Shown: piece after piece, positions 8,104-42,291 of the stretch
Position numbering within the stretch: position 1 is the first letter of the stretch
How the letters are laid out: each line of letters begins with the position of its first letter
From: an uncultured Anaerolinea sp.
GTDB taxonomy: Bacteria > Chloroflexota > Anaerolineae > Anaerolineales > Villigracilaceae
DNA: 64,000 bases
NCBI GenBank assembly: GCA_964511765.1
Contig: CAZEGE010000001.1
Location: 41,728 to 105,727 of the forward strand
Reading direction: 5' to 3'
Program-made: the position numbers and the translations under genes
Notes under the pieces: generated by a model
Database searches by the model: none
What the model was told of the DNA's origin: nothing
What the model saw: the letters and a program-made list of their open reading frames with translations, nothing else

Positions 8104-8682
8104 TTACGATTTGGATATTAAATAGTCTTCGGGGGTATCCAGGTCAGCGATCACACTGGGTGTATTCACAAGTACGTAGTGGATTGTGCGGGCGTGTTTT
8201 TTTAAAAAATCACGCGGTGTTTTTGGCGACTTCATGGCCAATAATTCATCCCAAAGAGACCGCGCAACAAGCCAGGGATGCCCGCGCTGCATTTGATAAC
8301 TTGGGACGACAATCTGGGATTTGCTTTCAAGGAAGGCATTACAGATGCTGCGCACGCTTCTTTCCTCGACCTGGGGCTGGTCGCCAAGACAAATGAGAGC
8401 GGCGCTCGCCTCACGCATTTTTACAGACAAACCCAACTGGATCGAGCTCAACATTTCACCGTTTTTATAATCTTCATTAAAAACAGTCTGGACCGTTTTA
8501 CCGATCAGCACTTCGATCTGTTGGCGTGCCCCACCGGTGACAACCAGAATATCTTTGATACCGGAAGCCTGGAATGTGGAAATAACCGTTTGCAACACCG
8601 TGCTTTTCCCCCATGGCATCAGCATTTTCGGTTCGCCCATCCGTTTGGATTCGCCTGCGGCGAGGATGATCGCTGTAATCAT
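8104..8682 (-). CDS. mocA: MocA-like NTP transferase (molybdenum cofactor cytidylyltransferase family)
   Basis: IILAAGESKRMGEPKML, CLGDQP, QRGHP, DLDTPEDY. Confidence 0.8.
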   Translation of the reverse strand: MITAIILAAGESKRMGEPKMLMPWGKSTVLQTVISTFQASGIKDILVVTGGARQQIEVLIGKTVQTVFNEDYKNGEMLSSIQLGLSVKMREASAALICLGDQPQVEERSVRSICNAFLESKSQIVVPSYQMQRGHPWLVARSLWDELLAMKSPKTPRDFLKKHARTIHYVLVNTPSVIADLDTPEDYLISKS

Positions 8683-8691
8683 GATTTTTCT

Positions 8692-10056
8692 CTATAGTTT
8701 TTCAATATCAACCAATCTTTGATAGTCTTCAGGATTGTCAACATCCAGTAAAAGGATGTCATCGTGCCAGGGTATGTATTCTACTTTGTATTTTGGGAAA
8801 ATGGCGCGCCCGCCGATATCCCCTGTCAATTGCAGGAGATCGGGGAAGGTGACCCGATCAAATAATACCGGGTTGGCGCGGCGTTCTTCAAGGACGAGAG
8901 GCGCGAGGACGGACTGTAATTCGCGCGCATGTGACTCTGTCAATGCGCGAATGACTTCAGCTGGGATCTGGGGCTGGTCGGCGAGCAGGAAGATTGCAGC
9001 CCCGACCTGGCCTTTCCAAAATGAATTAAGACCACCGTCGTATTTGGGAGAGGCGGATATGAAGTGGATGCCCGCTTTTATGGAAGTGCTTTGACCTTGT
9101 TGGTATTCGGGATTGCGGACGATGTGTACGGGCAGGTCTTTTAAACAGGATTCTACATCAGCGGCGTGAAAGCCTGTGACGACCACCACCGGCCGAAGTC
9201 CGGATTGAAGCGCGGTTTCGGCAATATGCCTTACGAAGGGTTTGCCTTTCCAGTCCAGCAGTTGCTTGGGAGAACCGAAGCGAGCGGCTTCGCCTGCGGC
9301 GAGGAGGATGGCGGCGGTGTGTTCGAAGGCGTGAAAAATCTTTTGCTTGCATGACCCAACGATGACAGACTGGAATTGATCCAATAATTGGGGCGCCATG
9401 CCGCCGCCGAGCGAATCCAGTTTGGGTGTGTCGGCTTGATTGAGCAGGGCGATGCGCCGCGCCGTAGTTGGGATGTTTTTCAATCCGCCCAGCGGATGGG
9501 TGAGCATGGAAATGATCGCCTGCGGTGTGATGGTTTTACCGATTTGCAGGCCGCTGAGTTGGGAGAAAATTTCAGCGCGATGGACGTATTCTTCTGTAAG
9601 CGGTTTATCAATGGAGGCTAGCCCTGCAAGAACGATGACGGTTTCGGTAAACTCCGGGATGGGCGGTTCGTGAGCGGCGGGCGCCTTAACCGGTTTTTGG
9701 CGGGAGCCATCCGCTTCGATCAGGAGGGGAATATTATTTTCCTTTGAATTTTCGCGTAACCTACCGAGGATGATATCGCTGACGGGCTTTGTGCGGTCAT
9801 TTTCAATTTCACCTGTGACCAGGACGACTCCTTGGCGCGGCATATTTTGAAGGTCGGTCAGATCATTGGCAATGATGTGATGGTCCGCGAACGGGATTTG
9901 CCAAACTCCCAAATGAGAGGTTGCAGTTACGATTGACGATTGAAGCTGGCGGGCGAGTTGGAAGAGGACAGTTGACTTTCCGCCCGCGCCGACCAGGCTG
10001 ATGGTCTGGTTTGAGGCGCAGGGAGAGTCGAGCCGAAGCGCATGGGCGATATTCAT
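8692..10056 (-). CDS. yqeC: YqeC (selenium-dependent Mo-hydroxylase accessory) fused to a MocA-like nucleotidyltransferase
   Basis: N-terminal ISLVGAGGKS and LIEADGSRQKPVKAPAAHEPPIP (YqeC). C-terminal ILLAAGEAARFGSPKQLL...LADQP...DVDNPEDY (MocA family). Confidence 0.82.
   Translation of the reverse strand: MNIAHALRLDSPCASNQTISLVGAGGKSTVLFQLARQLQSSIVTATSHLGVWQIPFADHHIIANDLTDLQNMPRQGVVLVTGEIENDRTKPVSDIILGRLRENSKENNIPLLIEADGSRQKPVKAPAAHEPPIPEFTETVIVLAGLASIDKPLTEEYVHRAEIFSQLSGLQIGKTITPQAIISMLTHPLGGLKNIPTTARRIALLNQADTPKLDSLGGGMAPQLLDQFQSVIVGSCKQKIFHAFEHTAAILLAAGEAARFGSPKQLLDWKGKPFVRHIAETALQSGLRPVVVVTGFHAADVESCLKDLPVHIVRNPEYQQGQSTSIKAGIHFISASPKYDGGLNSFWKGQVGAAIFLLADQPQIPAEVIRALTESHARELQSVLAPLVLEERRANPVLFDRVTFPDLLQLTGDIGGRAIFPKYKVEYIPWHDDILLLDVDNPEDYQRLVDIEKL
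9001..9053. repeat. Palindromic repeat inserted in frame in yqeC-mocA
   Basis: Minus strand CCTCTCCCAAAT...ATTTTGGAAAGG hairpin encodes an extra SPKYDGGLNSFWKGQ segment just before VGAAIFLL. Confidence 0.5.
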
Positions 10057-10083: not shown

Positions 10084-10578
10084 TTAAGGAGAGTGCAGAC
10101 TTTGCAGGCCCTTGCTCAACTCAGCGCTTGAGAGGGCGGCGGTTATTTCGGTTCCTGAATGATGCCAGCAAAGAAAGTTGACCGGCCGGTCGTTTGCGTC
10201 GAAGTTCAGGTGCACTCTGATATACAGCCTATCTTGCGCGGGGTGGCTGCCTACATATGAAACGCCCCAGTTGAATTCGAGGTGATTTTTCAGAACATCC
10301 AAATCTTCACTTTGTAAATGCGAGGGTTCCTCCAGGGTTTTGAATAGATCCCAGGGTGGCGACCAGATCCAGACAGGCGCGTTTTTATAAAAGACCGATT
10401 GAATTTGATCGAGATTCTGCCTGACGATGTCATCGTATTGTGAGGCATATCCTTTTCTTTCCAAATATTGTTCGCGGGGGGATTTATTTTTTTTCATGAG
10501 TCGTTGCAATTCCTTTTGCGGACTTTTACGTTTGCTTCTCGTATTCAAATTAGCGTTGCTTGCTTCACCCAGTGCCAT
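10084..10578 (-). CDS. Hypothetical protein
   Basis: 164-aa ORF co-oriented with neighbours that fills the gap. No family recognised; start uncertain. Confidence 0.5.
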   Translation of the reverse strand: MALGEASNANLNTRSKRKSPQKELQRLMKKNKSPREQYLERKGYASQYDDIVRQNLDQIQSVFYKNAPVWIWSPPWDLFKTLEEPSHLQSEDLDVLKNHLEFNWGVSYVGSHPAQDRLYIRVHLNFDANDRPVNFLCWHHSGTEITAALSSAELSKGLQSLHSP

Positions 10579-10661: not shown

Positions 10662-11348
10662 TCATGGCAGGGGGCGATAAATATGCGGCGCGACCCAAAG
10701 GCCGTTATCCTTTTGCGGGGTGTCCAGTGTGTGGAAGAGCCGAAGCGTTAGCACGAAGTCCACGGTTTGACCGGTCAGGGCGCTCAAGCCGGCATCCACC
10801 TGTATGGGAGGATCCCCAGTTATGTAATCCCAATCCATAAATGAACCGTGAAATTTGCCTTTACTGTCATAATACTCTAGGGCAAATTGAACATCACAGG
10901 GCGTGGACATGCGGCATCGAAGTGTGGCGCGGAAGCGGTCGTTTTCGCCGACGGTGAAAGAGGGATAACGAAGGAATAATGCTCCATAGCCGTTCCAGGG
11001 GGGAATTGTAAGCATGACCGGTGTGTCGGCGGGCAAGCCTTCCGGGACGGGATCGATCGGCGTTGCAAAACCGCCAGAATGGTCCGCGTTGGCATCTGGA
11101 CAGGTCGTCAGGTGCTGAGCGCCGTTCATCCATTCCGTATTACACAGCAAACCGATGAAATCGAGGGCGATGGTTCCCAGGGAGGCATACGGAGTGGCTG
11201 TTGGCGTGGGGGCGGGAGTTAAAGAGGGGATGGGAGTAAACACCGGCGCAGGGTTAATTTCGACGGATGGGGTGGGCGTGGATATAGCTTTCGGCGCGCA
11301 GGCGGCCAGCAATATCGGAAACAGGCAAAGGGACAAAAAGCGGCGCAT
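10662..11348 (-). CDS. Putative lipoprotein with Pro/Thr-rich linker
   Basis: MRRFLSLCLFPILLAAC lipobox, then a PTP-rich linker and a globular domain. RBS GGAG upstream of 11348. Confidence 0.75.
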   Translation of the reverse strand: MRRFLSLCLFPILLAACAPKAISTPTPSVEINPAPVFTPIPSLTPAPTPTATPYASLGTIALDFIGLLCNTEWMNGAQHLTTCPDANADHSGGFATPIDPVPEGLPADTPVMLTIPPWNGYGALFLRYPSFTVGENDRFRATLRCRMSTPCDVQFALEYYDSKGKFHGSFMDWDYITGDPPIQVDAGLSALTGQTVDFVLTLRLFHTLDTPQKDNGLWVAPHIYRPLP

Positions 11349-11405
11349 GGGACAAACTCCTAATATTCTGACAGTCATCAGATGCATTGTTATAAGGCTG
11401 ATCTG

Positions 11406-14500: not shown

Positions 14501-14529
14501 TTGACATCCTTCGACTTTTTTGCTACACT
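14501..14529 (+). promoter_or_regulatory. Sigma70 promoter of the purine catabolic operon
   Basis: TTGACA (14501-14506), 17-bp spacer, extended -10 TGC-TACACT (14524-14529). Confidence 0.75.
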
Positions 14530-14581: not shown

Positions 14582-16027
14582 ATGACCACCCTTCTCATCA
14601 AAAACGCGCATATCGTCACCATGGACGACCATCAACGGGAGATTCCCGAAGGTGGTCTTTTTATTCGCGAGGGAATCATTGAAAAGGTCGGCCCGATGAG
14701 CGAACTTCCCGACCCTTCGACAGGTTCAGGGCAGGCAGCCGATGAAGTTCTCGACCTCAAAGGTCATGTCGTTCTGCCTGGGCTGGTCAATACGCATCAT
14801 CATTTTTATCAAACCCTGACGCGCGCCGTTCCTGCCGCGCAGGACGCCAATCTTTTCAACTGGCTCAAAACTCTTTATCCCATTTGGGCGCGCCTCACTC
14901 CCGACGATATTTTTATCTCGACTCAGACCGCACTGGCAGAATTGGCCCTATCGGGATGCACCACCGCAGCGGATCATCTCTACCTCTTTCCAAACGGTTC
15001 AAAACTGGATGATGAAATTGCTGCGGCTGCCGAGATCGGATTACGCCTGCAAGCCTCGCGCGGTTCGATGAGCCTCGGCGAATCCAAAGGTGGACTCCCG
15101 CCCGATTCAGTGGTGGATAGCGAAGAAAATATCCTCAAAGATTCGCAGCGCCTGATCGAAAAATATCACGATGCAAAGCCCGGCGCGATGACTCAGATCG
15201 TACTCGCGCCCTGCTCGCCATTCAGCGTCACATCAGATTTAATGAAACAGTCTGCCAAACTGGCGCGTGATTATGGCGTGCATCTGCATACGCATCTCGC
15301 TGAGACCGAAGACGAAGAACAATTCTGCCAGCAGATGTTTGGCCATCGTCCCGTCGGTTATATGCAGGCTGTGGACTGGGTGGGTGAGGACGTCTGGTTT
15401 GCACATGCCGTCTGGGTCAACGATGAGGAGATACAGGTCTTTGCCAAACATCATTGCGGCGTGGCGCACTGTCCCACCTCAAATATGCGGCTGGCCTCTG
15501 GCATCGCGCCCATCAAGGAATTTCGCGCCGCTGGCGTGGACGTCGGCCTCGGCGTGGACGGCTCCGCTTCCAACGACGGCTCGCATCTGCTGGCGGAAGT
15601 CCGCAATGCGCTATTGGTGTCGAGAGTCAAAGAAGGCATGACAGGCTTCTCCGCTACACCCTCTCCCTCAGGGAGCCCCACAGGGGTGCTTCGCAAAGGG
15701 CAGGGTGAGGGCGAGCGAAAATTGATGACCGCGCGCGAAGCCTTGCATCTCGGCACACGCGGCGGCGCGGCGGTTCTGGGCCGTAATGATATCGGCAGCC
15801 TGGAAGCGGGCAAATGCGCCGACTTCTTCGCGGTCAACTTGAATCAACTGAGTTATACGGGCATGCATGACCCTGTGTCTGCCATCGTGTTTGGCCAGTC
15901 CATGAATGTGGATTACACTGTTGTCGGCGGAAAATTTATCGTAAAGGAAGGTCAGCTTATAACTATTAATGAACGTAAGTTGGTTGAAAAACATAACCAA
16001 GCCGCGAAACGATTATTGTTATCTTAA
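14582..16027 (+). CDS. 8-oxoguanine deaminase-like amidohydrolase
   Basis: PGLVNTHHHFYQTLTRA, HTHLAET, HCPTSNMRLASGI, GLGVDGSASNDG. Confidence 0.85.
   Translation: MTTLLIKNAHIVTMDDHQREIPEGGLFIREGIIEKVGPMSELPDPSTGSGQAADEVLDLKGHVVLPGLVNTHHHFYQTLTRAVPAAQDANLFNWLKTLYPIWARLTPDDIFISTQTALAELALSGCTTAADHLYLFPNGSKLDDEIAAAAEIGLRLQASRGSMSLGESKGGLPPDSVVDSEENILKDSQRLIEKYHDAKPGAMTQIVLAPCSPFSVTSDLMKQSAKLARDYGVHLHTHLAETEDEEQFCQQMFGHRPVGYMQAVDWVGEDVWFAHAVWVNDEEIQVFAKHHCGVAHCPTSNMRLASGIAPIKEFRAAGVDVGLGVDGSASNDGSHLLAEVRNALLVSRVKEGMTGFSATPSPSGSPTGVLRKGQGEGERKLMTAREALHLGTRGGAAVLGRNDIGSLEAGKCADFFAVNLNQLSYTGMHDPVSAIVFGQSMNVDYTVVGGKFIVKEGQLITINERKLVEKHNQAAKRLLLS
14712..14732. repeat. REP-like repeat inserted in frame
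   Basis: ACCCTTCGACAGGTTCAGGGC adds DPSTGSGQ between ELP and AADEVLDL. Confidence 0.6.
15659..15711. repeat. CCCTCTCCC/GGGAGAGGG palindrome with nested 21-nt insert, in frame
   Basis: CCCTCTCCCTCAGGGAG[CCCCACAGGGGTGCTTCGCAA]AGGGCAGGGTGAGGG. Shares the core CCCTCTCCCTCAGGGAG with the 38531-38578 copy. Confidence 0.7.
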
Positions 16028-16044
16028 ATTGGAGAATTTACATA

Positions 16045-16506
16045 ATGACAAACACACACAAGGTTGCGGCAGGCGACGATCTCTTTGGCGAACATCGAGG
16101 TCTCGGTATTAGTTTGATCTCTTTCAAGGTGGTACCGCAGGATAGCAGTGGTCTTTTTGTTATCGAAAATACCTTCCATGAGAAGGGCGGCCCTGCAAGA
16201 CATTTGCATTACGAACAGGATGAGTGGTTTTATGCGGTTGAAGGAGAATTTATTGTTGAAGTTGGGCAGGAAAGACTCACGCTAAAACCCGGCGACTCAC
16301 TTTTCGCGCCGCGCAAGATCCCTCATGTCTGGGCGTACGCAGGCGGTGGCGAGAAAGGCAGAATGCTGATCACCTTTATGCCCGCAGGCAAAATGGAGGC
16401 ATTTTTTCGTGAAGTAACAAAAGCAAACGCCATGCCGCCGCAAGACCCGGAATTATGGAAAGCCCATGGCATGGAGTTGCTTGGTCCGCCATTGAAAGTG
16501 GAATAG
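16045..16506 (+). CDS. Cupin domain protein (quercetin dioxygenase-like)
   Basis: GPARHLHYEQDEWFYAVEGE and PRKIPHVW cupin motifs. Confidence 0.85.
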   Translation: MTNTHKVAAGDDLFGEHRGLGISLISFKVVPQDSSGLFVIENTFHEKGGPARHLHYEQDEWFYAVEGEFIVEVGQERLTLKPGDSLFAPRKIPHVWAYAGGGEKGRMLITFMPAGKMEAFFREVTKANAMPPQDPELWKAHGMELLGPPLKVE

Positions 16507-16545
16507 AAATGCCGTCAGCAAAGAGATTGTTGCAAGGTCAAAGGA

Positions 16546-17106
16546 ATGAGTAACAAACGCGCCTGGATCAATGTCGTTCCCGAGGGAGAAGCGCAAGGCG
16601 AATTGAAGGCTTTGTACGAACAGGAATTCGATTCCGAAAAACAGGGAACAGATAATATCCTGGCGGTCCACTCGCTGAATCCGCCCACCCTGCGCGCTCA
16701 CGCCGATCTTTATCATACGGTGATGCACGCGAAGAGTCCGCTCAGCCGCTCGGAGCGTGAGATGGTGGCGGTGGTGGTCAGTGTCATCAATCAATGTCAT
16801 TATTGAATTGTGCATCATTCGCGCGGTCTGCTGCGATTTGTGAAGAGACCTGAACTGGTTGAAGCCTTGAAAAACGATTACCGCACCGCAGAGTTGATCC
16901 CGCGACAGCGCGCCCTGCTGGATTATGCTGATAAGCTTACGCGTGAACCCTGGTCTATGGCTGAGTCAGATCTTGAGCCTTTGCGAGAGGCCGGTTTGGA
17001 TGATCGCGGCATCCTTGACTTGAATCAGGCGGTGGCATATTTTGCCTATGTCAATCGTGTCGCGGATGGTTTGGGCGTCGCCGTCGACGAATACGCGTTT
17101 AAATAA
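16546..17106 (+). CDS. AhpD-like peroxidase-related selenoprotein (C-H-Y-U, UGA recoded at 16804-16806)
   Basis: ORFs 16546-16806 and 16810-17106 share a frame. Joined they read SVINQCHY*IVHHSRGL, where the family has CxxC. A SECIS-like hairpin follows the TGA. Confidence 0.85.
16807..16840 (+). promoter_or_regulatory. Bacterial SECIS element
   Basis: TCGC-GC-[GGTCT]-GC-T-GCGA hairpin (16819-16836). Loop G and U lie at +23/+24 counting the U of UGA as +1. Confidence 0.75.
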
Positions 17107-17107
17107 T

Positions 17108-17410
17108 ATGATGAGTGACTTGTTCGTAATAATTATCTTTGGCTGGCCTGCGGTCATTACATCCATATTGCTTTCGATTGTAGGTTTATTGTTGATGAAG
17201 CCAAAGTTCTTAATAGTCGCTGGAATTGTATGCGTCCCTTTTACATATTATGCCAGCAACGGATTTCGCACTCCTGTTTTATTGCTGCCTCTGTTTCAAT
17301 TGATCTCAGCTTATGCAATTGAACGTCAAAATAATTTCATGGCCTGGCTGCTGGTTATGCCATTGATCATTTTTTCGGTGGCGCTTGCTATTTCTGTTTT
17401 GACACAATAG
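17108..17410 (+). CDS. Small hydrophobic membrane protein
   Basis: About 100 aa with several hydrophobic segments. Start moved to ATG 17108, after the selenoprotein stop. Confidence 0.6.
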   Translation: MMSDLFVIIIFGWPAVITSILLSIVGLLLMKPKFLIVAGIVCVPFTYYASNGFRTPVLLLPLFQLISAYAIERQNNFMAWLLVMPLIIFSVALAISVLTQ

Positions 17411-17435
17411 TTGAATGTCCAGTTATGGAGAATTT

Positions 17436-19226
17436 ATGACCTCATCCACAAAACTCACTCGTACCCTTGTTGACGTAGCCATGGGACGCACCCAGGCCGA
17501 CCTTGTCATTCGGGGAGGTAAATGGGTGAGTGTGCAATCGGGTGAGGTCGTCCCGGATACCGATATTGCCATTGTGGCGGGTCACGTCGCTTACGTCGGG
17601 CGTGATACCAGTCATGCAATTGGAAAAAAGACAAAAGTCATCGAGGCCAGAGGGCGTTATCTTGTGCCCGGCCTTCTGGATGCGCATATGCACGTTGAAT
17701 CCGGCATGGTCACAGTGACAGAGTATGTGCGCGCGGTGGCAGTGCATGGAACGACCGGCATGTTCATCGACCCGCACGAGATCGCCAACGTCTTTGGTCT
17801 CAAAGGTGTGAAGTTAATGGTGGACGAGGCTCGCAAACAGCCCGTCCATGTCTGGGTACAAATGCCCTCTTGTGTTCCATCTGCGCCGGGGTTTGAAACA
17901 CCGGGTTCATCCATTGGCCCGAGGGAAGTGGCGGAAGCCATGAGCTGGAAGGGCATCATTGGCTTGGGAGAGATGATGAACTTCCCCGGCGTGTTCATGG
18001 GCGATAAAAAAATGCTGGAAGAAATGTCCGTGACGCATGCGGCAGGGAAGGTGATTGGCGGGCATTATGCCTCGCCGGACCTCGGCCTTCCGTTTCACGG
18101 GTATGTCGCGGGCGGCGCGGAGGACGACCACGAAGGCACTCGCCTGGATGATGCGGTCGCGCGTGTCAGGCAGGGTATGAAAGCCATGCTGCGTTACGGG
18201 TCCGCCTGGCATGACGTGGCGGCTCAGGTCAAAGCCATAACCGAAAAGAAATTGGATGCGCGCCGCTTCATCCTTTGCACCGATGATTCCCACGCGGCAA
18301 CGCTCACGCAGGAAGGTCACATGGACCGCGTGCTGCGCCATGCAATTTCGGAAGGTTTAAATCCGATGACTGCCATTCAAATGATGACCATCAATGCCGC
18401 CGAGCATTTCGGTCTTACCAAGGAAATGGGTATGATCGCGCCCGGCCGCTGGGCGGACCTGCTCCTGGTTGAGGATTTGATGAATTTCAAGGCCGATCTG
18501 GTCATCGCCAAAGGACAGGTCATTGCCGAGAATGGTGAATTGCAGGTCAAATTGCCCGTGGTCAAGTATCCCAAATGGGCCACCAATTCTGTGCATTTGA
18601 AGAGAAATCTCAAAGCGGAGGATTTTGCCCTGCGGACGAGAGCAAACGACGGAGTGGAGATTGAGGCGCATGTCATCGGTGTGATCGAGAATCAGGCGCC
18701 GACCCGCCATCTCAGGATGAAGGTCAAGGCAGACGCTGGCGAAGTCAAAGCGGATCTGAAACGCGACCTCGCGAAGATCGCGCTGGTGGAACGTCATCGC
18801 GCAACAGGCAAGGTCACGGTGGGATTGGTGAGCGGATTTGAATTCACAAGGAAGTGCGCGATCGGCTCGACAGTGGCGCATGACAGCCATCACATGATCG
18901 TGGTCGGAACTGATGATGAGAGCATGGCACTCGCTGCGAATGAACTGGCGAAATGCGGCGGCGGCCAGATTGTGGTGATCAACAGCGAAGTGGTTGGGCT
19001 GGTGGATTTGCCGATCGCGGGCTTGATGTCGAACGAGAGCGCGGATATTGTGGCGCAGAAAACCGCCTCGGTGCTTGAGGGTTTCAAGGCCTGCGGTTGT
19101 GAACTGAACAATCCGAATATGCAGTTAAGCTTAATGGCGCTGGTGGTCATACCTGAATTAAGGATTTCTGATAAGGGTCTTGTGGATGTAACCCAATTTG
19201 ATTTTGTGCCTGTGCTGGAAGATTGA
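17436..19226 (+). CDS. ade: Adenine deaminase
   Basis: PGLLDAHMHVES, DPHEIANV, GLGEMMN, DDHE, LCTDD, STVAHDSHH. RBS GGAG before 17436. Confidence 0.92.
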   Translation: MTSSTKLTRTLVDVAMGRTQADLVIRGGKWVSVQSGEVVPDTDIAIVAGHVAYVGRDTSHAIGKKTKVIEARGRYLVPGLLDAHMHVESGMVTVTEYVRAVAVHGTTGMFIDPHEIANVFGLKGVKLMVDEARKQPVHVWVQMPSCVPSAPGFETPGSSIGPREVAEAMSWKGIIGLGEMMNFPGVFMGDKKMLEEMSVTHAAGKVIGGHYASPDLGLPFHGYVAGGAEDDHEGTRLDDAVARVRQGMKAMLRYGSAWHDVAAQVKAITEKKLDARRFILCTDDSHAATLTQEGHMDRVLRHAISEGLNPMTAIQMMTINAAEHFGLTKEMGMIAPGRWADLLLVEDLMNFKADLVIAKGQVIAENGELQVKLPVVKYPKWATNSVHLKRNLKAEDFALRTRANDGVEIEAHVIGVIENQAPTRHLRMKVKADAGEVKADLKRDLAKIALVERHRATGKVTVGLVSGFEFTRKCAIGSTVAHDSHHMIVVGTDDESMALAANELAKCGGGQIVVINSEVVGLVDLPIAGLMSNESADIVAQKTASVLEGFKACGCELNNPNMQLSLMALVVIPELRISDKGLVDVTQFDFVPVLED

Positions 19227-19232
19227 GGTGAT

Positions 19233-19949
19233 ATGGCTAATTTTCCTTTTCAAAGAGTGCAGGTCGATCTGGCAGCGCTGATCGCTCGTTCGCCAGCGGG
19301 CCAGCGGCTTCCGTCCGAACCTGATCTTGCCAAACAACTTGGCGTTTCGCGCGCCACCTTGCGCGAGGCCATGCGTTCGTTTGAAACGCAGGGATTGATT
19401 CGCCGCAGGCAGGGTTCTGGAACTTTTGTGGTCGGCAAGATGCAGGTGCTGGATAGCGGCCTGGAAGTGCTTGAAAGCCTTGAGACGATTGCAATGCGCC
19501 TGGGGCTTGAGGTCTCTGTCAGTAATTTGAGCATCGAGCCGGCCGCTGCCGATGAAGAGCTGGTGAAGCTGCTGGATGTTGCGATGGGTGAAAAATTAAC
19601 TCGGGTCTGCCGCGTGGTGCGCACAGATAACAGACCCGTGGCATATCTTGAGGATATTCTGCCTGAGACCTTTCTCTCCTCGAAGGATTTACCCGAGGAT
19701 TTTCACGGTTCGGTTCTGGACTTTTTGCTGGGTCGCGGCGATGCTCTGGAATCTTCCCGCGCGAACGTCAGCGCCATCGGTGCAACAGCTGAAGTTGCCA
19801 AGGCGCTTGAGGTGCAGCGTGGCGACGTGTTATTGCATTTTTATTCACAGTTATATAATCGCAGCGGAAAAGTAGTGGATTATTCCCTTGGTTATTTTAT
19901 TCCCGGATATTTTCATTTCCATATCGTCCGGCGCGTAGGCATTACCTGA
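19233..19949 (+). CDS. GntR family regulator, HutC subfamily (HTH + UTRA)
   Basis: LPSEPDLAKQLGVSRATLREAM...RRQGSGTFV, then a C-terminal UTRA-type domain. Confidence 0.9.
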   Translation: MANFPFQRVQVDLAALIARSPAGQRLPSEPDLAKQLGVSRATLREAMRSFETQGLIRRRQGSGTFVVGKMQVLDSGLEVLESLETIAMRLGLEVSVSNLSIEPAAADEELVKLLDVAMGEKLTRVCRVVRTDNRPVAYLEDILPETFLSSKDLPEDFHGSVLDFLLGRGDALESSRANVSAIGATAEVAKALEVQRGDVLLHFYSQLYNRSGKVVDYSLGYFIPGYFHFHIVRRVGIT

Positions 19950-20003
19950 GCTTAAACTGATCGCGTACCTGCAATCAGCATATCAAATTCTTGAGGTGTT
20001 TTA

Positions 20004-21227
20004 ATGACAAAAGTGAACGACATAAAGAAAAAAGTACAGGACAATCGTGAAAATATTATTCAATTCTTGCGTGATATTGTTGCCATTCCCAGCATGGAAG
20101 GCCAATTGAAGGACGTCGGCGAGCGCATCCAGGCCGAGATGCTGAAACTAGGTTTCGACGAGGCGCGCTTCGACAAGATGGGCAACACCATCGGTCGCAT
20201 TGGCGACGGTCCCAAGGTGATCGTCTTCGACTCGCATATTGACACCGTGGGCGTCGGCGACCCCAGCGAATGGGAATGGGATCCGTTCAAGGGCAAGGTT
20301 GAGGACGGCGTTTTGTATGCGAGGGGTGCATGTGATGAAAAAGGCAGCACGCCCGGCATGGTGTATGGTATGGCAATTGCCCGCGATCTGGGTCTGCTCG
20401 ATGGCTACACCGCCTACTACTTCGGCAACATGGAAGAGTGGTGCGATGGCATCGCACCCAACGCCTTCGTCGAGACCGACCCCCGGGTGAAACCCGATTT
20501 CGTGGTCATCGGCGAGCCGACCAAGATGCAGGTCTACCGCGGGCATAAAGGGCGAATCGAATTGAAGGTCACCGCCACCGGGCGCTCAGCGCACGCGGCG
20601 TCGCACTACCTGGGCGACAACGCCGTGTACAAGATGATGGCGATCATCACGCAAATCCGCGAGTTGGATCGTCGGATGCGCTTCGGTATGGGCTATCATC
20701 CGGTGCAGGGATTTCCCTCAATCGCGGTGACCGATGTTTCGGCGCGCACGGCTTCACTCAACGCGGTGCCCGATCAGTTCACGATCTATATTGATCGCCG
20801 CATCACTTCGAACGAGCCGCACGACGCAGTGATTGAGCAGATCAAGGGACTGATCCCCGACTATTTGCAGGACGAAATTCACGTCGAAGAACTGTTCTAC
20901 GACGCGCCGTCCTACACAGGCTTCGTCTTTCCGGTGTTGAAGTTCTACCCGCCCTGGCTGCTGGATGACGCGCATCCATTGACGCAGGCGGGGCAGTGCA
21001 CTATCGAGACGCTGTGGGGCGAGAAGCGGATGCTGGGCACGTGGGACTTCTCGACCAACGGCACCTATTGGGCTGGCAAGGCGAATATCCCGTCCATCGG
21101 CTTTGGCCCTGGCGATGAGAAAACCGCGCACATGCGCCACGAAAACGTGTTGCTCGACGAGGTGGTACGCGCCACGGAGTTCTATGCGCTGTTGCCAAAA
21201 ATGTTGGCTGAACAAAGCCAAAAGTGA
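20004..21227 (+). CDS. ygeY: YgeY-family M20 metallohydrolase
   Basis: DSHIDTVGVGD, RGACDEKG, EEWCDG, GEPT, YRGHKGR, WDFSTNG, GFGPGDE...AH. Confidence 0.8.
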   Translation: MTKVNDIKKKVQDNRENIIQFLRDIVAIPSMEGQLKDVGERIQAEMLKLGFDEARFDKMGNTIGRIGDGPKVIVFDSHIDTVGVGDPSEWEWDPFKGKVEDGVLYARGACDEKGSTPGMVYGMAIARDLGLLDGYTAYYFGNMEEWCDGIAPNAFVETDPRVKPDFVVIGEPTKMQVYRGHKGRIELKVTATGRSAHAASHYLGDNAVYKMMAIITQIRELDRRMRFGMGYHPVQGFPSIAVTDVSARTASLNAVPDQFTIYIDRRITSNEPHDAVIEQIKGLIPDYLQDEIHVEELFYDAPSYTGFVFPVLKFYPPWLLDDAHPLTQAGQCTIETLWGEKRMLGTWDFSTNGTYWAGKANIPSIGFGPGDEKTAHMRHENVLLDEVVRATEFYALLPKMLAEQSQK

Positions 21228-24704: not shown

Positions 24705-26720
24705 ATGAAAAAATGGATCGAACGGCTTGATGGCGTGAAATTTAAAACGCGTAGCGCTGCGTGGTTTATGCTATTAATTGCCGTACTGACCTATGGACTG
24801 TTCTTCTGGAAGCGCGGTTTTTATTGGGATGAATTTCCCTGGGCGTGGATCTATTATCGCCTGGGTCCTGATGTCTTAACAAAAACCTTCTCCACCAGCC
24901 GCCCGTTTTGGGGCATGATCTATCAGCTCACCCTGCCAGTAATTGGACCGAACCCCTGGGTTTGGCAATTACTGGCAATTGTTTTGCGCTGGTTTACTGC
25001 GCTTTTGTTATGGGCGATACTGCGTATTTTGTGGCCCGCGCACTCAAAACCCGCATTTTGGGCGAGTTTACTTTTCCTTGTCTACCCCGGTATGGGGCAG
25101 CACTTCATTGCCATGATGTACAGCCATTTTTATATTGTGCTGTCGTGCTATTTGCTTTCCATTTATCTTTCACTGCTGGCTCTGAAGGATGAAAAATACC
25201 GCTGGGTTTTATTTGGGGCATCCTGGTTGCTGGCCGCGGTCAACCTGCTGACCATGGAATATTTTTATTTCCTCGAGTTCGCACGGATTTTCCTCTTCTG
25301 GCAGGTGTTAACAGGCAGGAATAAAAACCGCATCCAAAAAACCGTATTGTACTTTTTGCCATTCTTGTTGATATTTTCAGGCGTCACATTTTGGCGTATG
25401 ACCTTCTTTACCTTCCAAAACGCCAGTTATCGATATGTTTTGCTGGACGCATTCCGCGATGATTTTCTGGCAGGGTTATTGTTGTTTATAAATAACGTTG
25501 CCCTGAGTTTCTGGCGGACCGTTTTTGAAGTCTGGTTGTATCCACTGCTAACCCTTGGCTTATCGGGATTTGGACCGCTCACGCTCGCCTTGATGCTGGT
25601 CCTGTTATTCTCGATCATTTTTCTGGTTGGCATATATTTGTTCAAATTTACAATAAACGACTCCGATGATCGTGAATTTGCCCGGCAGGCAGGTTTTATC
25701 GGTTTGGTTTTTTGGGGTCTATCGGGCGGATCGGTGTGGGTGATAGGCGTCGTTCCGCAGTTGAACTTCTCGATAGATCGCTTCATGCTGCCCTTCATGC
25801 TGGGGGCGAGTCTATTGCTGGCTAGTCTGATCGCGTTGATTAAAAACCGGCGCTCCCAAATGATCCTGGTGGCTTTGCTGGTTGGCTTTGCCGCGAGCAG
25901 ACATTTCCGTCTCGAAGATATTTTCCGCCACGATTGGGCCACCCAGCAAGACTTCTTTTGGCAAATGACATGGCGAATTCCGGCGCTGGAAAAAGGGACG
26001 ATCCTGCTTTCCAACGACCTGCCTGTTACCTACTATTCAGATAATTCATTGACCGGGCCTCTGAATTGGATCTACAGTCCGCCTGGTGAGATGAACAGTA
26101 TTTTATACTTCGCCTCCATACGGGTTGGAAAAACATTGCCAAGCGTGGAGCCGGGTCAAGCACATCAGTTGTACTATATCGGCCCGACCTTTTATGGGAA
26201 CACTTCCAAGATCCTTGTGATCCATTATGAACCGCCCGGTTGTTTCCGCGTGATCGATCCTGAGGTTGAAGAAACGAATCGGCTTCTGCCTCCTGCCCTT
26301 AGAGATGTTGCGCGCTATTCCAATCAGGATGTGATCCTGATCGAACAGCAGGCGCAGCTCCCAGGTCAGCTTTACGGAAGCGAGCCGTCGCATGGCTGGT
26401 GTTATTATTTTGGACAGGCTGAATTGGCGCGTCAAAAAGGAGATTGGGACCAGGTAGTCGCACTTGGTGAAACCGCGTTTGCGCTTGACGACCACCCAAA
26501 TGACCCAGTCGAACGTTTCGTTTTTATTGAAGGTTATGCTCATGTTGGAGATTGGAAAAAGGCGGTAGAATTATCAAATACTTCCTATAAAATATCAAAA
26601 AACTATGTCGGTCCGCTGCTCTGCAGGTTGTGGGATCGGATTGAACGCCAGACTCAAAGTACCCCGGAGCAGGTTTCTGCACTGGATAAAGTACGAAGCG
26701 AGTTCGAGTGTTTACCTTAG
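24705..26720 (+). CDS. Large multi-pass membrane protein with soluble C-terminal domain (possibly GT-C fold)
   Basis: 671 aa. GFYWDEFPW and SRPFWG N-terminal loop, about 11 TM segments, helical C-terminus. Confidence 0.7.
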   Translation: MKKWIERLDGVKFKTRSAAWFMLLIAVLTYGLFFWKRGFYWDEFPWAWIYYRLGPDVLTKTFSTSRPFWGMIYQLTLPVIGPNPWVWQLLAIVLRWFTALLLWAILRILWPAHSKPAFWASLLFLVYPGMGQHFIAMMYSHFYIVLSCYLLSIYLSLLALKDEKYRWVLFGASWLLAAVNLLTMEYFYFLEFARIFLFWQVLTGRNKNRIQKTVLYFLPFLLIFSGVTFWRMTFFTFQNASYRYVLLDAFRDDFLAGLLLFINNVALSFWRTVFEVWLYPLLTLGLSGFGPLTLALMLVLLFSIIFLVGIYLFKFTINDSDDREFARQAGFIGLVFWGLSGGSVWVIGVVPQLNFSIDRFMLPFMLGASLLLASLIALIKNRRSQMILVALLVGFAASRHFRLEDIFRHDWATQQDFFWQMTWRIPALEKGTILLSNDLPVTYYSDNSLTGPLNWIYSPPGEMNSILYFASIRVGKTLPSVEPGQAHQLYYIGPTFYGNTSKILVIHYEPPGCFRVIDPEVEETNRLLPPALRDVARYSNQDVILIEQQAQLPGQLYGSEPSHGWCYYFGQAELARQKGDWDQVVALGETAFALDDHPNDPVERFVFIEGYAHVGDWKKAVELSNTSYKISKNYVGPLLCRLWDRIERQTQSTPEQVSALDKVRSEFECLP

Positions 26721-26856: not shown

Positions 26857-28134
26857 ATGCGTAAGAATTTTGCCCGCCTCGCAATGTTTGCGTTGGCACT
26901 CATGTTAGTCCTGTCCGCTTGTGGTGGTGCTCAACCTGCCGCCACCGAAGCCCCTGCTGCCGGGGGAGCTCCTGCTGCTACGGAAGCCCCTGTTGCCGCT
27001 ACTGAAGCGCCCGCTGATTCGAGCGGCTTTCAGATCCCCGAGGTAGTAGATGGAAAATTCAATGTCGCCATGGTTTTGATCGGACCCCACGATGATGGCG
27101 GTTGGTCGCAGGCGCATTACGAAGGCCTGATGTACATTGAAGAGAATGTCCCGAATGTGCACACGGCCTATATTGAAAATGTACCTGAAGGTGCAGATTC
27201 CGAACAGGTTTTCCGCAGCCTTTCACGCAAGGGATTCAACCTGATCTTCGGCACATCCTTTGGTTTCGGCGACCCGATGCAGGCTGTCGCTGAGGAGTTC
27301 CCGGATGTGATGTATATTCACCTAACCGGTATCAACTCCAACCAGACCAACTTTGGCAACCTGATGGGTGCGATGGAAGATATGAAATACTTGGCTGGAA
27401 TGCTGGCAGGTGCGCGCGCCAAGATGGACGGAAACCCCAAACTTGGTTATATGGCCACCTTCCCCATCCCTGAAGAAATTCGCCTCGGTAATGCCATTGC
27501 GTTGGGTATGAAGAAGACCTGCCCCGAATGCACCATGGATGTCCGCTGGATCAATACCTGGCATGACCCTGTCATTGAGAAAGAAGCTGCGGCTTCCCTC
27601 TTTGATGCTGGTGCTCAGGTTGTGTTCACCGGCGCTGATACTCCTGCGAATGCCGATGTAGCGCAGGAAAAAGGCAAGTGGGGCGTAACCTATGACTGGT
27701 ATGGTTCCTGCAAGGTGGATGCTTGTCTCACCGCTCCTTACTGGGTCTGGGGTCCAATTTATTCCGCAATCACCGAAAAAGTAATTGCCGGAACCTATGT
27801 CCCTGGTTGGGATTACTTTGATGCCGAGACAGGTGCATTGGGATTGTATGGTTTCATGGAAGGCCAGGAACTTACCCCCGGTGTGGCCGATCTTGATCCT
27901 GAAGTGATTGCAATGGTGAAAGATACCCTTGCCAAGATGCTCGCTGGCGAATTCACTCGCTTTGATGTGTTCACTGGCCCGATTAACGATAATCAGGGTA
28001 ACGTGGTTCTGCCTGCCGGCCAAAGCCTGGAACAGGTCGATCTTGACGCCTTCCCTGAATATGGTTTGCCGTGTACCGTCTCAGTCTGTATGAAGTGGTG
28101 GGCCGAAGGCATTACCGCTGAACTGCCTCAATAG
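26857..28134 (+). CDS. BMP-family (nucleoside/purine) ABC substrate-binding lipoprotein 1
   Basis: Lipobox LSAC, AATEAP repeats, DGGWSQAH, IFGTSFGF, NAIALG. Confidence 0.88.
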   Translation: MRKNFARLAMFALALMLVLSACGGAQPAATEAPAAGGAPAATEAPVAATEAPADSSGFQIPEVVDGKFNVAMVLIGPHDDGGWSQAHYEGLMYIEENVPNVHTAYIENVPEGADSEQVFRSLSRKGFNLIFGTSFGFGDPMQAVAEEFPDVMYIHLTGINSNQTNFGNLMGAMEDMKYLAGMLAGARAKMDGNPKLGYMATFPIPEEIRLGNAIALGMKKTCPECTMDVRWINTWHDPVIEKEAAASLFDAGAQVVFTGADTPANADVAQEKGKWGVTYDWYGSCKVDACLTAPYWVWGPIYSAITEKVIAGTYVPGWDYFDAETGALGLYGFMEGQELTPGVADLDPEVIAMVKDTLAKMLAGEFTRFDVFTGPINDNQGNVVLPAGQSLEQVDLDAFPEYGLPCTVSVCMKWWAEGITAELPQ

Positions 28135-28151
28135 CCGTTAAATTGATAAAT

Positions 28152-28183
28152 GGGCCAGGACTCTCAGGGTTCTGGCCCTCTTT
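28152..28183 (+). terminator. Stem-loop after BMP gene 1
   Basis: GGGCCAGGAC...GTTCTGGCCC followed by TCTTT. Confidence 0.6.
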
Positions 28184-28294
28184 GTACAATGTCTGGTTGA
28201 CCGTCCCGCAGATTTGACGAGAGAATTTCATAATTCTAGGGAAACCTGCGGGATGTTTCCCAATATATCGACTTTATCGCAGGAGAGTAACCTG

Positions 28295-29890
28295 GTGATT
28301 AATCAAACCTCCTCAACGCTTGCTATACCCTCGGAAACACCCTTGATTGTCGAAATGCGTGGGATCGTCAAGCGTTTTCCCGGTGTGCTGGCAAACGACC
28401 ACGTTGATTTTGAATTATGTCAGGGCGAAATACACGGATTGCTGGGAGAGAACGGGGCCGGCAAAAGCACTTTAATGAATGTATTGGCTGGCTTATATCG
28501 CCAGGAAGCCGGCACTATTTTGGTCAGGGGTGAGCCGAAAGTTTTTTCCTCCCCGCGTGATGCGATCAAATCGGGTATTGGCATGGTGCATCAGCATTTC
28601 ATGCTTGTGCCATCTCAAACCGTCACGGAAAATATTTTGCTTGGGCTTGATGATCCGCGCTTCATCATGCGTTTACCTGATTACGATACCAAGATTGCAG
28701 AATTGGGTGAACGCTTTGGATTAAAAGTGGATCCGCGCGTAAAGATCTGGCAATTATCTGTGGGGGAACAACAGCGTGTTGAAATTCTAAAAATGCTTTA
28801 TCGCGGCGTGGACGTGCTTATCATGGATGAGCCGACTGCTGTGCTTGCCCCACAAGAGATCGTAGGTTTATTTGAAACCTTGCGAGCCATGATTGCTCAG
28901 GGGAAATCCGTTATTTTTATCAGTCATAAATTACAGGAAGTCAGCGCCATTGCGGACCGCGTCAGTGTTTTGCGGCGTGGGGTGGGTACGGCTTCGGGCG
29001 TGCCTTCAAAGGGGATTTCACGCCAGGAATTGGCGCGTTTGATGGTAGGGCGCGAAGTTATTTTTTCAGTTGATAAAAAGCCCTGCAATCCACAAAGTGT
29101 TGTGCTGGATGTTAAAGATATTCATGCCGAGAATGATAAAGGCCTGCCTGCTTTGCGCGGGGTTTCATTGAATGTGCGCGCGGGTGAAATTGTCGGTGTG
29201 GCGGGTGTGGCAGGGAATGGTCAGAGCGAGCTTTCACAGGTTATTTCCGGTATGCGTAAATGTAAACAGGGACAGGTTCTGTTGAATGGCGATACGGTCA
29301 GCAACCGAAATACGTTATTTGGCATTCAACACGGCATGGCGTATGTCCCCGAGGATCGCACCCATGTAGGCAGCGCCCCCAATCTCAGCGTGACAGATAA
29401 CGTCATTATGAAGAATTATCGCAAACCTCCGATCTCAAATAAGGGTTTGCTGGATATGAAAGTTGCCACCAAACTTGCCAATGAACTTAAAACGGCCTAC
29501 GACATTATCGTGCCCAGTGTTTCCACGCCCGTTCGTTTATTATCGGGCGGAAACCTGCAGCGTGTGATCCTGGCGCGTGAGATCTCCGGTTTGCCTGCGT
29601 TCATGGTTGCGGTGCAGCCGACGCGTGGCCTGGATGTCGGCGCAATCGAAGGAGTCCACCGTTTATTGCTTGCCCAGCGCGAAGCGGGTGCGGCTGTCCT
29701 GCTTATTTCTGAGGAGCTGGAGGAATTGCTCTCGCTCAGTGATCGCGTTTATGTGATCTACGAAGGAAAGATTATGGGCGAGGTGAAGGTCGAAGGCGGC
29801 GAAGCAGATGAGGACCTGGTTGATACGATTGGTCAGATGATGACGGGCACTCCGCTCGATCAAATCCCAAAAGAAGGAGTGGCTGCATAA
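28295..29890 (+). CDS. Tandem-domain ABC ATPase (NupA/CUT2 type)
   Basis: GENGAGKS, LSVGEQQR, IMDEPT, LSGGNLQR, QPTRGLD. GTG start with AGGAG RBS. Confidence 0.92.
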   Translation: MINQTSSTLAIPSETPLIVEMRGIVKRFPGVLANDHVDFELCQGEIHGLLGENGAGKSTLMNVLAGLYRQEAGTILVRGEPKVFSSPRDAIKSGIGMVHQHFMLVPSQTVTENILLGLDDPRFIMRLPDYDTKIAELGERFGLKVDPRVKIWQLSVGEQQRVEILKMLYRGVDVLIMDEPTAVLAPQEIVGLFETLRAMIAQGKSVIFISHKLQEVSAIADRVSVLRRGVGTASGVPSKGISRQELARLMVGREVIFSVDKKPCNPQSVVLDVKDIHAENDKGLPALRGVSLNVRAGEIVGVAGVAGNGQSELSQVISGMRKCKQGQVLLNGDTVSNRNTLFGIQHGMAYVPEDRTHVGSAPNLSVTDNVIMKNYRKPPISNKGLLDMKVATKLANELKTAYDIIVPSVSTPVRLLSGGNLQRVILAREISGLPAFMVAVQPTRGLDVGAIEGVHRLLLAQREAGAAVLLISEELEELLSLSDRVYVIYEGKIMGEVKVEGGEADEDLVDTIGQMMTGTPLDQIPKEGVAA

Positions 29891-31011
29891 TGGCTGAGTC
29901 GACCTCTGTTAAACCAAGAATGCCATTTCGTATCCGGATTGAGCCGCGCTTGAGCGAGCCTCCGGCATGGTATCCCGCTGTAATCTCCCTGGGTGCGCTT
30001 ATTGTAGCCTTGATATTGGGTGGTATTTTGATCACATTTTCCGGCGGCGATGCGATCCGTTCTTATCAACATATAGCCAAGGCTTCGTTTGGTGATATTG
30101 GTGTGCTTTCTGATACCATCGTAAAAGCAACGCCGATCCTTTTGGCGGCTCTGGCTTGTGCGGTGGCGTTCCGCATGAAATTGTGGAATATCGGCGCGGA
30201 GGGGCAGTTCATCATGGGTGCTTTTGGCGCGAGCGCGATCGTGCTTGCACCGGTATTGCCTGCGGAAACTTCGCGCTGGGTGTTTATTCCTGTCATGATG
30301 CTGGCAGGCATGGTTTCAGGTGCGATCTGGGGGTTTATCCCCGGCTATCTTAAGGCAAAATTCAATGTGAATGAGATCATCAGTACCTTGATGTTGAATT
30401 ATGTTGCAGTGGCGTGGGTTAACTTTTGGATCTTTGGTGTGTGGACGGAAGGCGGTTTTCAAATGTCCCCCAAGTTCCCAAACAATTCCTGGTTGCCGCG
30501 TTTGCTGGATTATGCCAAGGCTTTTCCAGCCTTTCGCGGATTGACTACTCACCTTGGATTGGTTATTGGGATCATAGCGGCATTTATTTTGTGGTTAATC
30601 ATCTTTCGCAGCCGTTGGGGATATGAGATCCGCTTGATTGGCGATAATCCAAAGGCGGCACAATATGCAGGCATCAATATCACACGGAACACGATCTGGG
30701 TGATGATGCTCTCTGGCGCGCTGGCAGGACTGGGTGGCATGTCCGAAATTTCCGGCGTTGTCCATCGTTTGCAAACTGCGCCGATTGCGGCCGGATATGG
30801 TTTTACGGGAATCATCGTTGCCTGGCTGGCTAAACTGAATCCACTGGTCATCATATTCGTTTCCGTCTTATTCGGTGCGTTGATCCTCGCAGGACGAGAG
30901 ATCCAGCCTTCGGGTGTCCCCAAAATGATCCAGGGAATTATACTGGTCTGTCTCATCGCCAGCGATTTCCTGCTGCGCTATCGGATCGTGATTGCACACG
31001 GGGAGGAATAA
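29890..31011 (+). CDS. Nucleoside ABC permease
   Basis: LWNIGAEGQF, NEIISTLMLN, GYEIRLIGDN, GYGFTGIIVAWL. Confidence 0.9.
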   Translation: MAESTSVKPRMPFRIRIEPRLSEPPAWYPAVISLGALIVALILGGILITFSGGDAIRSYQHIAKASFGDIGVLSDTIVKATPILLAALACAVAFRMKLWNIGAEGQFIMGAFGASAIVLAPVLPAETSRWVFIPVMMLAGMVSGAIWGFIPGYLKAKFNVNEIISTLMLNYVAVAWVNFWIFGVWTEGGFQMSPKFPNNSWLPRLLDYAKAFPAFRGLTTHLGLVIGIIAAFILWLIIFRSRWGYEIRLIGDNPKAAQYAGINITRNTIWVMMLSGALAGLGGMSEISGVVHRLQTAPIAAGYGFTGIIVAWLAKLNPLVIIFVSVLFGALILAGREIQPSGVPKMIQGIILVCLIASDFLLRYRIVIAHGEE

Positions 31012-31013
31012 TT

Positions 31014-34335: not shown

Positions 34336-34439
34336 ACCATGGATAAGGAGGTTGTGTAAAAAGAGTTATTAGATAAATCACAGGTTGTGTCAAATTTTGT
34401 GCTTAAACAGTCTCATATTTAAATCAGGAGAAGAAGAAA

Positions 34440-35504: not shown

Positions 35505-35523
35505 GATAAATACCTGATAAAAA

Positions 35524-35557
35524 ACCTGACAAGTCATCGTAGGATGACTTGTCAGGT
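35524..35557. terminator. Stem-loop after BMP gene 2
   Basis: Perfect 15-bp inverted repeat ACCTGACAAGTCATC-gtag-GATGACTTGTCAGGT; no clear U tract. Confidence 0.6.
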
Positions 35558-42280: not shown

Positions 42281-42291
42281 TTTAGGTTGGT

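Follow-up and report, generated by a model that had tools for sequence, protein, structure and literature searches.

In this work, we analyzed a stretch of 64,000 nucleotides from an uncultured Anaerolinea sp. (hereafter the window, meaning the whole stretch at its full length) and, within it, a segment of the plus strand at 16546-17106. The segment carries two open reading frames (ORFs), one of 86 amino acids (16546-16806) and the other of 98 amino acids (16810-17106), which lie in the same frame with only the TGA at 16804-16806 between them. The single frame runs from ATG 16546 through TAT 16801-16803, the TGA and ATT 16807 to TAA 17104-17106, and its read-through product has 186 residues, including the segment VINQ-C84-H-Y-[TGA87]-I-V-H-H91. 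The comparisons presented below make it very probable, at the level of sequence, that this is one gene encoding a selenocysteine (Sec)-containing protein of 186 residues, a member of the AhpD-like family (COG2128/TIGR01926) with a C-x-x-U motif. The first-pass annotation of this DNA had already proposed a single AhpD-like gene in which the TGA takes the place of the second Cys in the CxxC typical of the family. This proposal is borne out by the profile match, by the conservation of the TGA in relatives and by the alignment with Cys-containing forms.

Family membership was established by profile searches in which Cys was placed at the TGA. The read-through protein matches the NCBIfam model TIGR01926 (peroxidase-related enzyme) with 162.8 bits against a cutoff of 81.8 (E=6.7e-48), residues 6-180 aligning with positions 1-175 of the 178 in the profile and spanning the TGA, and it also matches the Pfam domain CMD (PF02627; 3.7e-13). 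Among sequences of known structure, the PDB entries 3c1l, 2pfx, 2oyo, 6k40 and 2prr are matched over about 160 residues with values ranging from 2e-31 (3c1l) to 6e-23; the alignment is unbroken across the TGA, and the C-x-x-C of these homologues aligns to C-H-Y-[TGA]. Two neighboring models stayed under their cutoffs, namely the true AhpD model TIGR00777 (16.9 bits, cutoff 191.95) and the model of CFYUT-type AhpD-related selenoproteins NF041238 (64.7 bits, cutoff 175), of whose 357 positions only the C-terminal part was matched. When the window was scanned for further genes with an in-frame TGA, none had a redox motif or a supporting family match.

The conservation of the TGA was assessed in two sets of loci. 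A genomic scan with one genome per species gave 544 relatives, the best 80 of which were kept as the Sec-type set; these come from Chloroflexota/Anaerolineae, Acidimicrobiia, Acidobacteriota, Marinimicrobia, Gemmatimonadota, Phycisphaerae, Pseudomonadota and Bacillota, that is, from about eight phyla. Another scan, which started from Cys forms, provided 80 more distant loci from metagenomes (L081-L160). In the Sec-type set the aligned codon is TGA in all 79 assessable loci, the remaining one being cut by a contig end, and always in the context C-x-Y-TGA-x-x-H-H; the same codon is TGC or TGT in 80/80 of the more distant Cys-form loci. As determined by tblastn, the N-terminal half lies in frame immediately 5' of the TGA in 77 of the 80 Sec-type loci, and the C-terminal half is contiguous in every one of them. 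The residues Glu, Cys, Tyr and His at positions -15, -3, -1 and +4 relative to Sec are present in 78/80 sequences, with the His at +4 in 80/80. Furthermore, third codon positions hold most of the substitutions in both halves of the gene when it is compared with its nine closest relatives (L001-L009), the nearest of which, L001, shows 85-90% amino-acid identity; against L003, for instance, the substitutions at codon positions 1, 2 and 3 number 12, 4 and 48 in the N-terminal half and 15, 12 and 52 in the C-terminal half. The expectation of the first-pass annotation that homologs would show Cys in the TGA column, and conservation on both sides of it, thus agrees with what was found.

The same comparison explains how such genes appear in protein databases. 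Our search returned 95 proteins. In the full-length relatives (about 185 amino acids, 40-55% identity) the motif is C-x-x-C and its second Cys aligns with the TGA, while the closest proteins (56-80% identity) are all fragments of 100-128 amino acids beginning immediately after the TGA. About 35 C-terminal halves of this size were present, including two NCBI entries of 109-110 amino acids labelled 'peroxidase-related enzyme', as well as one N-terminal half ending in ...NRCHY and five 'full-length' entries (P0001-P0004 and P0016) with C-H-Y-W, i.e. with W at the TGA position. Gene callers do split or mistranslate genes of this Sec type, as had been predicted for the gene of the window. Some composite entries were also observed. 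P0084 is the N-terminal half of a close relative that gives way, after about 60 residues, to an unrelated stretch similar to the C-terminal end of a tyrosine recombinase, probably an insertion; P0077 consists of a C-terminal half fused to a SnoaL-like domain, and in P0088 the C-terminal half is followed by a second CMD domain.

Metagenome contigs from four independent studies (sediment, groundwater, lake and soil) cover positions 16500-17150 (651 bases) with 0-3 differences, the only one listed being at 16530. Since the TGA is unchanged in all of them, it is not an assembly error. About a dozen studies have metagenomes with sequence near-identical to 14600-19200 (0.40-0.99 of sampled words), the samples being sediment, groundwater, lake water, soil and mine tailings. 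Hence the organism, which its relatives L001-L009 suggest to be an Anaerolineae-like Chloroflexota, has a wide distribution in freshwater and the subsurface. In a search for RNA runs, all those obtained were of unspecified type.

Directly 3' of the TGA lies a hairpin resembling a selenocysteine insertion sequence (SECIS). With nucleotides (nt) numbered from the U of UGA, the segment GCGGUCUGC at 16823-16831 corresponds to nt 20-28, and the G and U that had been noted at +23 and +24 are indeed G23 (16826) and U24 (16827). In the fold consistent with the family, the pairs are U16-A33, C17-G32, G18-C31, C19-G30, G20-C28 and C21-G27, U29 is bulged, and G22 G23 U24 C25 U26 (16825-16829) form the loop. 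The support for this hairpin is comparative, because the window hairpin considered alone is no better than shuffled sequence (see below). A hairpin enclosing nt 23-24 is found in 74 of the 80 Sec-type sequences, mostly with 5-7 base pairs (bp) and with GGUCU, GGUC, GGU or GGG as the loop, and GG occupies nt 22-23 in 74/80. The stems are of at least ten distinct kinds (UCGCGC/GC-GCGA, GCGGCC/GG-CCGC, GGAGC/GCUCC, GCAGG/CCUGC, GGGGAG/CUCCUC, GGCGAA/UUCGCC, GGAGAA/UUCUC, GGCUG/CAGCC, CGCUC/GAGCG and GCGGAG/CUCCGC).

The register of the loop-closing pair varies by clade, the first pair being 21-25, 21-26 or 21-27. Because no single gapless consensus structure fits all 80 sequences, base pairs were counted on a class of 19 sequences in the register of the window and on a model-fitted alignment. 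In the gapless alignment of the 19 sequences 98.2% of the cells pair and three of the six pairs are changed on both sides; in controls with slid partner columns pairing falls to 25-46%. The covariance model R1, built from this alignment, has its sole match in the 64 kb at 16804-16848 with 57.8 bits (next best, 9.1). Among the 80 Sec-type loci, 76 are matched by R1 at their TGA site, and at the corresponding site of the Cys forms its score never exceeds 14 bits. The R1-fitted alignment, which leans on the model and in which about half of the cells are gaps, shows pairing in 91% of the cells as compared with 68% in shuffles, and compensatory changes in four of the six pairs.

Several observations qualify or weigh against the proposed assignment: (i) the TGA-split ORF pair by itself means little, as the six frames of the window contain 62 sites where an in-frame TGA is flanked on both sides by 45 or more open codons; what takes this one beyond chance is that the full-length family match spans it and that it is conserved in relatives; (ii) the minimum free energy (MFE) of the window hairpin, -12.3 kcal/mol for 57 nt (z=+0.20) and -9.0 kcal/mol for 45 nt (z=+0.78), is no better than that of shuffled sequences, and in the MFE fold G23 belongs to the closing pair of a UCUG loop, the fold common to the family, which has G22-U26 in the loop, being nearly isoenergetic with it in the upper stem (-6.3 vs -6.1 kcal/mol); (iii) a scan of the whole window against Rfam at the gathering threshold gave zero matches, and a permissive scan of 16500-17150 gave chance matches only, with E above 5, so that the element falls under no curated SECIS model; (iv) when the 5' arm of one sequence was combined with the 3' arm of another, the sequences with their own arms were at -7.17 kcal/mol and the chimeras at -5.66 kcal/mol, with a median rank of 0.36, a signal that is modest because many of the GC-rich arms are interchangeable, and weight was therefore put on the pair counts and the comparison with Cys forms; (v) selA, selB, selC and selD were all missing from the 64-kb window, where no tRNA, and no SelA, SelB or SelD among the scanned ORFs, was detected; and (vi) no peroxiredoxin (ahpC) was found either among the scanned ORFs of the window or among recurrent neighbors in relatives, and no obvious redox partner is nearby. 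With regard to the fifth point, YqeC and markers of a Se-dependent hydroxylase imply selD and are uninformative on selA, selB and selC.

Among the alternative explanations, the one that survives best, although we regard it as highly improbable, is that the nucleotide conservation 3' of the UGA reflects protein constraint only (His-His-x-x-Gly-Leu) and that there is no RNA element. The hairpin is wholly coding and its loop is the Gly-Leu codon pair, and both the non-significant fold of the single sequence and the weak arm-swap test speak in favor of this alternative. However, nt 24, a synonymous third position in the Gly codon, is U in 62/80 of the Sec sequences and the next Leu codon is CUN in 78/80, whereas in the Cys forms Gly is replaced by Ala, and they have no codon preference at nt 24 and no hairpin; their MFE over nt 13-39 is weaker as well (-4.1 kcal/mol as compared with -6.9 kcal/mol for the Sec forms; Mann-Whitney p=5e-10, the sequences being non-independent). 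Besides, the flanking residues covary as base-pairing codons (SR..LR, AA..VR, GE..LK, GE..RR and GA..RR), and one clade without the GG loop has another hairpin 10 nt downstream.

It is slightly less probable still that the UGA is read as Trp, Cys or Gly, through an alternative code or near-cognate suppression, and not as Sec. The five database entries showing W could be taken to favor this explanation, but for P0004 the corresponding DNA, that of L032, has TGA where the protein shows W. The code in use is the standard one, TGA being an ordinary terminator in 8 of the 36 family-supported ORFs of the window and in 31 of 80 genes of the AhpD-like family. Furthermore, the residue aligned with the TGA in homologues is the redox Cys, which makes a classic Sec/Cys pair, and a hairpin at a fixed distance typifies Sec decoding, not code reassignment.

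We give hardly any weight to the view that the gene is a pseudogene of the Cys type, its TGA having arisen by nonsense mutation or through a mistake in sequencing or assembly. It is true that Cys-type homologues with TGC or TGT are common, that one base change turns these codons into TGA, and that the Sec machinery was not seen in the 64 kb. Nevertheless, the TGA occupies the same codon in every assessable relative across about eight phyla, both halves are under purifying selection, the C-terminal half has neither frameshifts nor a neutral pattern of substitution, the sequence is found identical at this codon in contigs of four independent studies, and the conserved and covarying 3' hairpin is absent from the Cys forms. 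Just as improbable are two separate small proteins, one of 86 amino acids ending at the TGA and one of 98 amino acids starting from GTG 16810, which are exactly the ORFs that gene callers yield, given that the TGA lies within a two-helix catalytic motif (Glu72...Cys84-x-x-[87]-x3-His91) forming one structural unit in the solved homologues, that no Shine-Dalgarno-like sequence precedes 16810, that the codon after the TGA is often a non-start codon in relatives (e.g. CTG, ACG or ACC), and that the Cys-form relatives are single proteins of about 185 amino acids.

If the segment is indeed a single AhpD-like selenoprotein gene, the UGA at 16804 would be read as selenocysteine in translation, and the hairpin at 16819-16836, located 13-30 nt 3' of the UGA and with its apical G and U at 23 and 24 nt, would bind SelB together with GTP and Sec-tRNA(Sec), as has been demonstrated for fdhF of Escherichia coli. 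The product would carry the proton-relay residues of AhpD as Glu72, Cys84, Tyr86, Sec87 and His91, with Sec for the second Cys. The most likely chemistry would be an attack of the selenolate at residue 87 on an oxidised substrate, which may be a peroxide or else a sulfenate or disulfide of a protein, followed by formation of a selenenylsulfide with Cys84 and re-reduction by a thiol donor. In the lineage of the window, co-transcription with the purine deaminase genes is probable.

Two further observations concern the hairpin and the protein that it overlaps. In one Chloroflexota clade of six loci (L059, L060, L064, L074, L076 and L080), whose sequence reads ...C-x-Y-U-L-K/R-H-H-A-R-N-L-R-Q, the GG loop at nt 22-23 is lost and Asn replaces Gly. 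These loci have another hairpin, (U)CCGUC-AGUU-GACGG(A), at about nt 26-41, with the loop G and U 10 nt farther from the UGA (e.g. L059:5992-6036); its stem varies among members of the clade, L080 having CCUUCGUC/GACGAAGG. It looks like a SECIS relocated within one protein family. The second observation is that Gly-Leu (GGU CUN) at codons +7/+8 after Sec, flanked by mutually pairing codons, is found both in the Sec forms (16822-16836 in the window) and in fdhF (L161:2406-2450(-)), while the Cys forms have Ala-Leu. Several residues in the catalytic helix thus seem to be set by the RNA element. How an in-frame SECIS constrains a protein can be seen in a clean natural comparison of the two sets of 80 loci, the Sec type with Gly-Leu at +7/+8 and base-pairing codons around it and the Cys type with Ala-Leu and no hairpin.

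The features of the locus and its surroundings are collected in Table 1.

Table 1. Coordinates of the AhpD-like gene, its predicted recoding elements and neighboring features in the 64-kb window
Position	Strand	Feature	Evidence or remark
16546-17106	+	Complete AhpD-like (TIGR01926) gene, very probably a selenoprotein gene; 186 codons + TAA, predicted Sec = codon 87	Frame, TIGR01926, CMD, PDB 3c1l
16546-16803	+	N-terminal coding part, residues 1-86	Glu72 (16759-16761), Cys84 (16795-16797), Tyr86 (16801-16803)
16804-16806	+	UGA, predicted selenocysteine, residue 87, second-Cys position of CxxC	Conservation in relatives
16807-17106	+	C-terminal coding part, residues 88-186, and stop TAA 17104-17106	His91 (16816-16818)
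16819-16836	+	SECIS-like hairpin core, nt 16-33, family-consistent fold	Pair counts, compensatory changes, model R1
16815-16843	+	Extended hairpin; a lower helix pairing U12-U15 to G37-A40 is optional	Seen in the MFE folds of the window, L001 and L003; other close relatives do not retain it
14501-14529	+	Best sigma-70-like promoter match, TTGACA-17-TACACT, 5' of the gene string 14582-21227	10 of 12; consensus match only
14582-16027	+	8-oxoguanine deaminase-like amidohydrolase, upstream neighbor	Also 5' of the gene in L001 and L003
16045-16506	+	Cupin	
17108-17410	+	Hydrophobic ORF of 100 amino acids	
17415-19226	+	Adenine deaminase, next downstream gene with a family match	Adjoins the selenoprotein gene directly in L001
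19233-19949	+	GntR regulator	
20004-21227	+	YgeY	451 bits, cutoff 321.5
8692-10056	-	YqeC (selenium cofactor biosynthesis) fused to MocA-like cytidylyltransferase, 454 amino acids	TIGR03172, 151.6 bits, cutoff 73.05; marker of the labile selenium cofactor trait
37267-38226		XDH FAD subunit	
38260-41157		Se-dependent-XDH-like gene	TIGR03311 top match but sub-cutoff, 752.8 vs 830.45

The AhpD-like gene belongs to a string of plus-strand genes at 14582-21227, with intergenic gaps of 17-54 bases and no convincing terminator-like site between genes. Beyond YgeY lie carbamoyltransferases, a carbamate kinase and two BMP-type ABC transporter sets. The latter are tandem sets of the BMP family (nucleoside-type) on the plus strand, at 26857-31982 and 32252-37198, which differ in gene order: the first starts with the binding protein and the ATPase and ends with two permeases, while in the second the two permeases come before the binding protein and the ATPase. 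Between the carbamate kinase and the first set, a 671-amino-acid ORF at 24705-26720 (+) has zero Pfam or NCBIfam matches. On the minus strand, a second, stand-alone MocA-like gene adjoins the YqeC fusion (8104-10056 together), and the ORFs beyond the fusion, at 10084-10578 and 10662-11387, have no family match. YqeB and SelD were not found in the 64-kb window. Three ORFs of 359, 554 and 410 amino acids at 41201-45198 (-) have no NCBIfam match at 1e-25 and a GC content of 0.37-0.41, compared with about 0.50 elsewhere; this region, which has the XDH genes on one side and a threonine-synthase-like gene on the other, was possibly acquired as an island by horizontal transfer.

The first-pass annotation had stressed that the gene lies among purine catabolic genes near yqeC, so that both selenium traits, Sec and a labile selenium cofactor, appear at one locus. 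As a description this holds, with the YqeC fusion, YgeY and the Se-dependent-XDH-like gene as candidate markers of a selenium-dependent molybdenum hydroxylase locus, the last of them below its TIGR03311 cutoff. As a sign of function it does not, because the placement within a purine cluster is seen in only 2 of the 80 related loci, L001 (fully syntenic, 84-90% identity) and L003. In L001 neither the cupin nor the hydrophobic ORF was found by tblastn, and the deaminase genes abut the gene. In six other close relatives the gene stands beside Mrp/NUBPL, ferredoxin and peptidoglycan-binding genes, and the marinimicrobial copies have genes for an amino-acid permease, an M20 peptidase and an amidinotransferase as neighbors; across the AhpD-like family, no conserved neighborhood was found when one was looked for. 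The linkage between purine and selenium genes looks lineage-specific. It would be tempting to speculate that, in the lineage of the window, L001 and L003, the selenoprotein was recruited to the regulon of the Se-dependent purine hydroxylase pathway as a dedicated selenol/thiol reductant, where it could maintain the reduced state of the labile selenium cofactor or of the proteins that deliver it, or clear peroxide from purine oxidation. Such a recruitment would functionally link two traits of selenium utilisation, yet we consider it very unlikely.

The element that invites comparison with the hairpin is the SECIS of E. coli fdhF, to which it had been described as closely similar. In E. coli K-12 the sequence after the Sec codon of fdhF is UGACACGGCCCAUCGGUUGCAGGUCUGCACC..., and both genes have GGUCUGC at nt 22-28, with the same letters at the same distance, and Gly-Leu at codons +7/+8. 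In the window gene, as in fdhF, the element begins inside the coding sequence just 3' of the UGA, and the apical loop presents G23 and U24 at that distance, which in the window requires the family-consistent, not the MFE, fold. The similarity is thus upheld for the apical part, which in E. coli fdhF is the part that binds SelB, and it does not extend to the rest of the structure. The fdhF helix is long (about 40 nt, from nt 3 to 42; -14.9 kcal/mol, z=-1.6), whereas the window element has an upper stem of 5-6 bp and an optional lower helix of 4 bp (-9.0 kcal/mol, z=+0.8). SECIS elements of the fdhF type have a bulged U17; the window lacks the long two-part helix next to the UGA, and its predicted fold has no bulged U on the 5' side. 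R1, the covariance model of the AhpD-like element, did not detect the fdhF element.

With respect to the protein, the spacing of the relay Glu-x11-Cys-x-(His/Tyr)-Cys-x3-His is shared with AhpD of Mycobacterium tuberculosis and PA0269 of Pseudomonas aeruginosa. The proton relay comprises Glu118/Cys130/His132/Cys133/His137 in the former and Glu36/Cys48/Tyr50/Cys51/His55 in the latter (PMC3141380), to be compared with Glu72/Cys84/Tyr86/Sec87/His91 in the window; the PA0269 structure 2o4d is matched at 1.1e-7. In contrast to both proteins, Sec would replace the second Cys in the window protein, and the window gene, unlike that of AhpD, has no adjacent ahpC. The other structural homologues, 3c1l (Mlr4105), 2pfx, 2oyo, 2prr and 6k40 (AhpD), differ from the window protein in being all Cys forms, and the names on the first four are putative or uncharacterized.

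The closest known system is the AhpD-like family itself, which the first-pass annotation had rightly taken to be known and little studied. The Sargasso Sea data brought the AhpD-like protein (COG2128, CxxU) to light in 2005 as a selenoprotein family then new, with 27 sequences and a drawn SECIS (PMC1088965). In the Global Ocean Sampling (GOS) data of 2008, only three prokaryotic selenoprotein families were more abundant, the counts being 299 Sec sequences and 902 Cys homologues (PMC2398784). It appears as 'AhpD-like protein, TIGR01926, CxxU' in a review of 2026, which cites an example from GenBank (PMC13188914), and it has a family page in BSepDB (PMC13326102). Since the family has been catalogued since 2005, the window gene is a further member and not a discovery, and the biological gain is small, the family, the CxxU motif and the SECIS having been known since then. 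In practice, the gene merits annotation as one selenoprotein of 186 residues, as its relatives are now stored as two fragments or with W at Sec. Compared with the family ('AhpD-like 1' of GOS), nothing essential differs: TIGR01926, the C-x-x-U motif, a length of about 185 amino acids and, immediately 3' of the UGA, a SECIS-like hairpin whose small apical loop contains G are all shared, and what characterizes the window copy is that it comes from an Anaerolineae-like lineage of freshwater, sediment and groundwater and lies in a purine-catabolic gene string.

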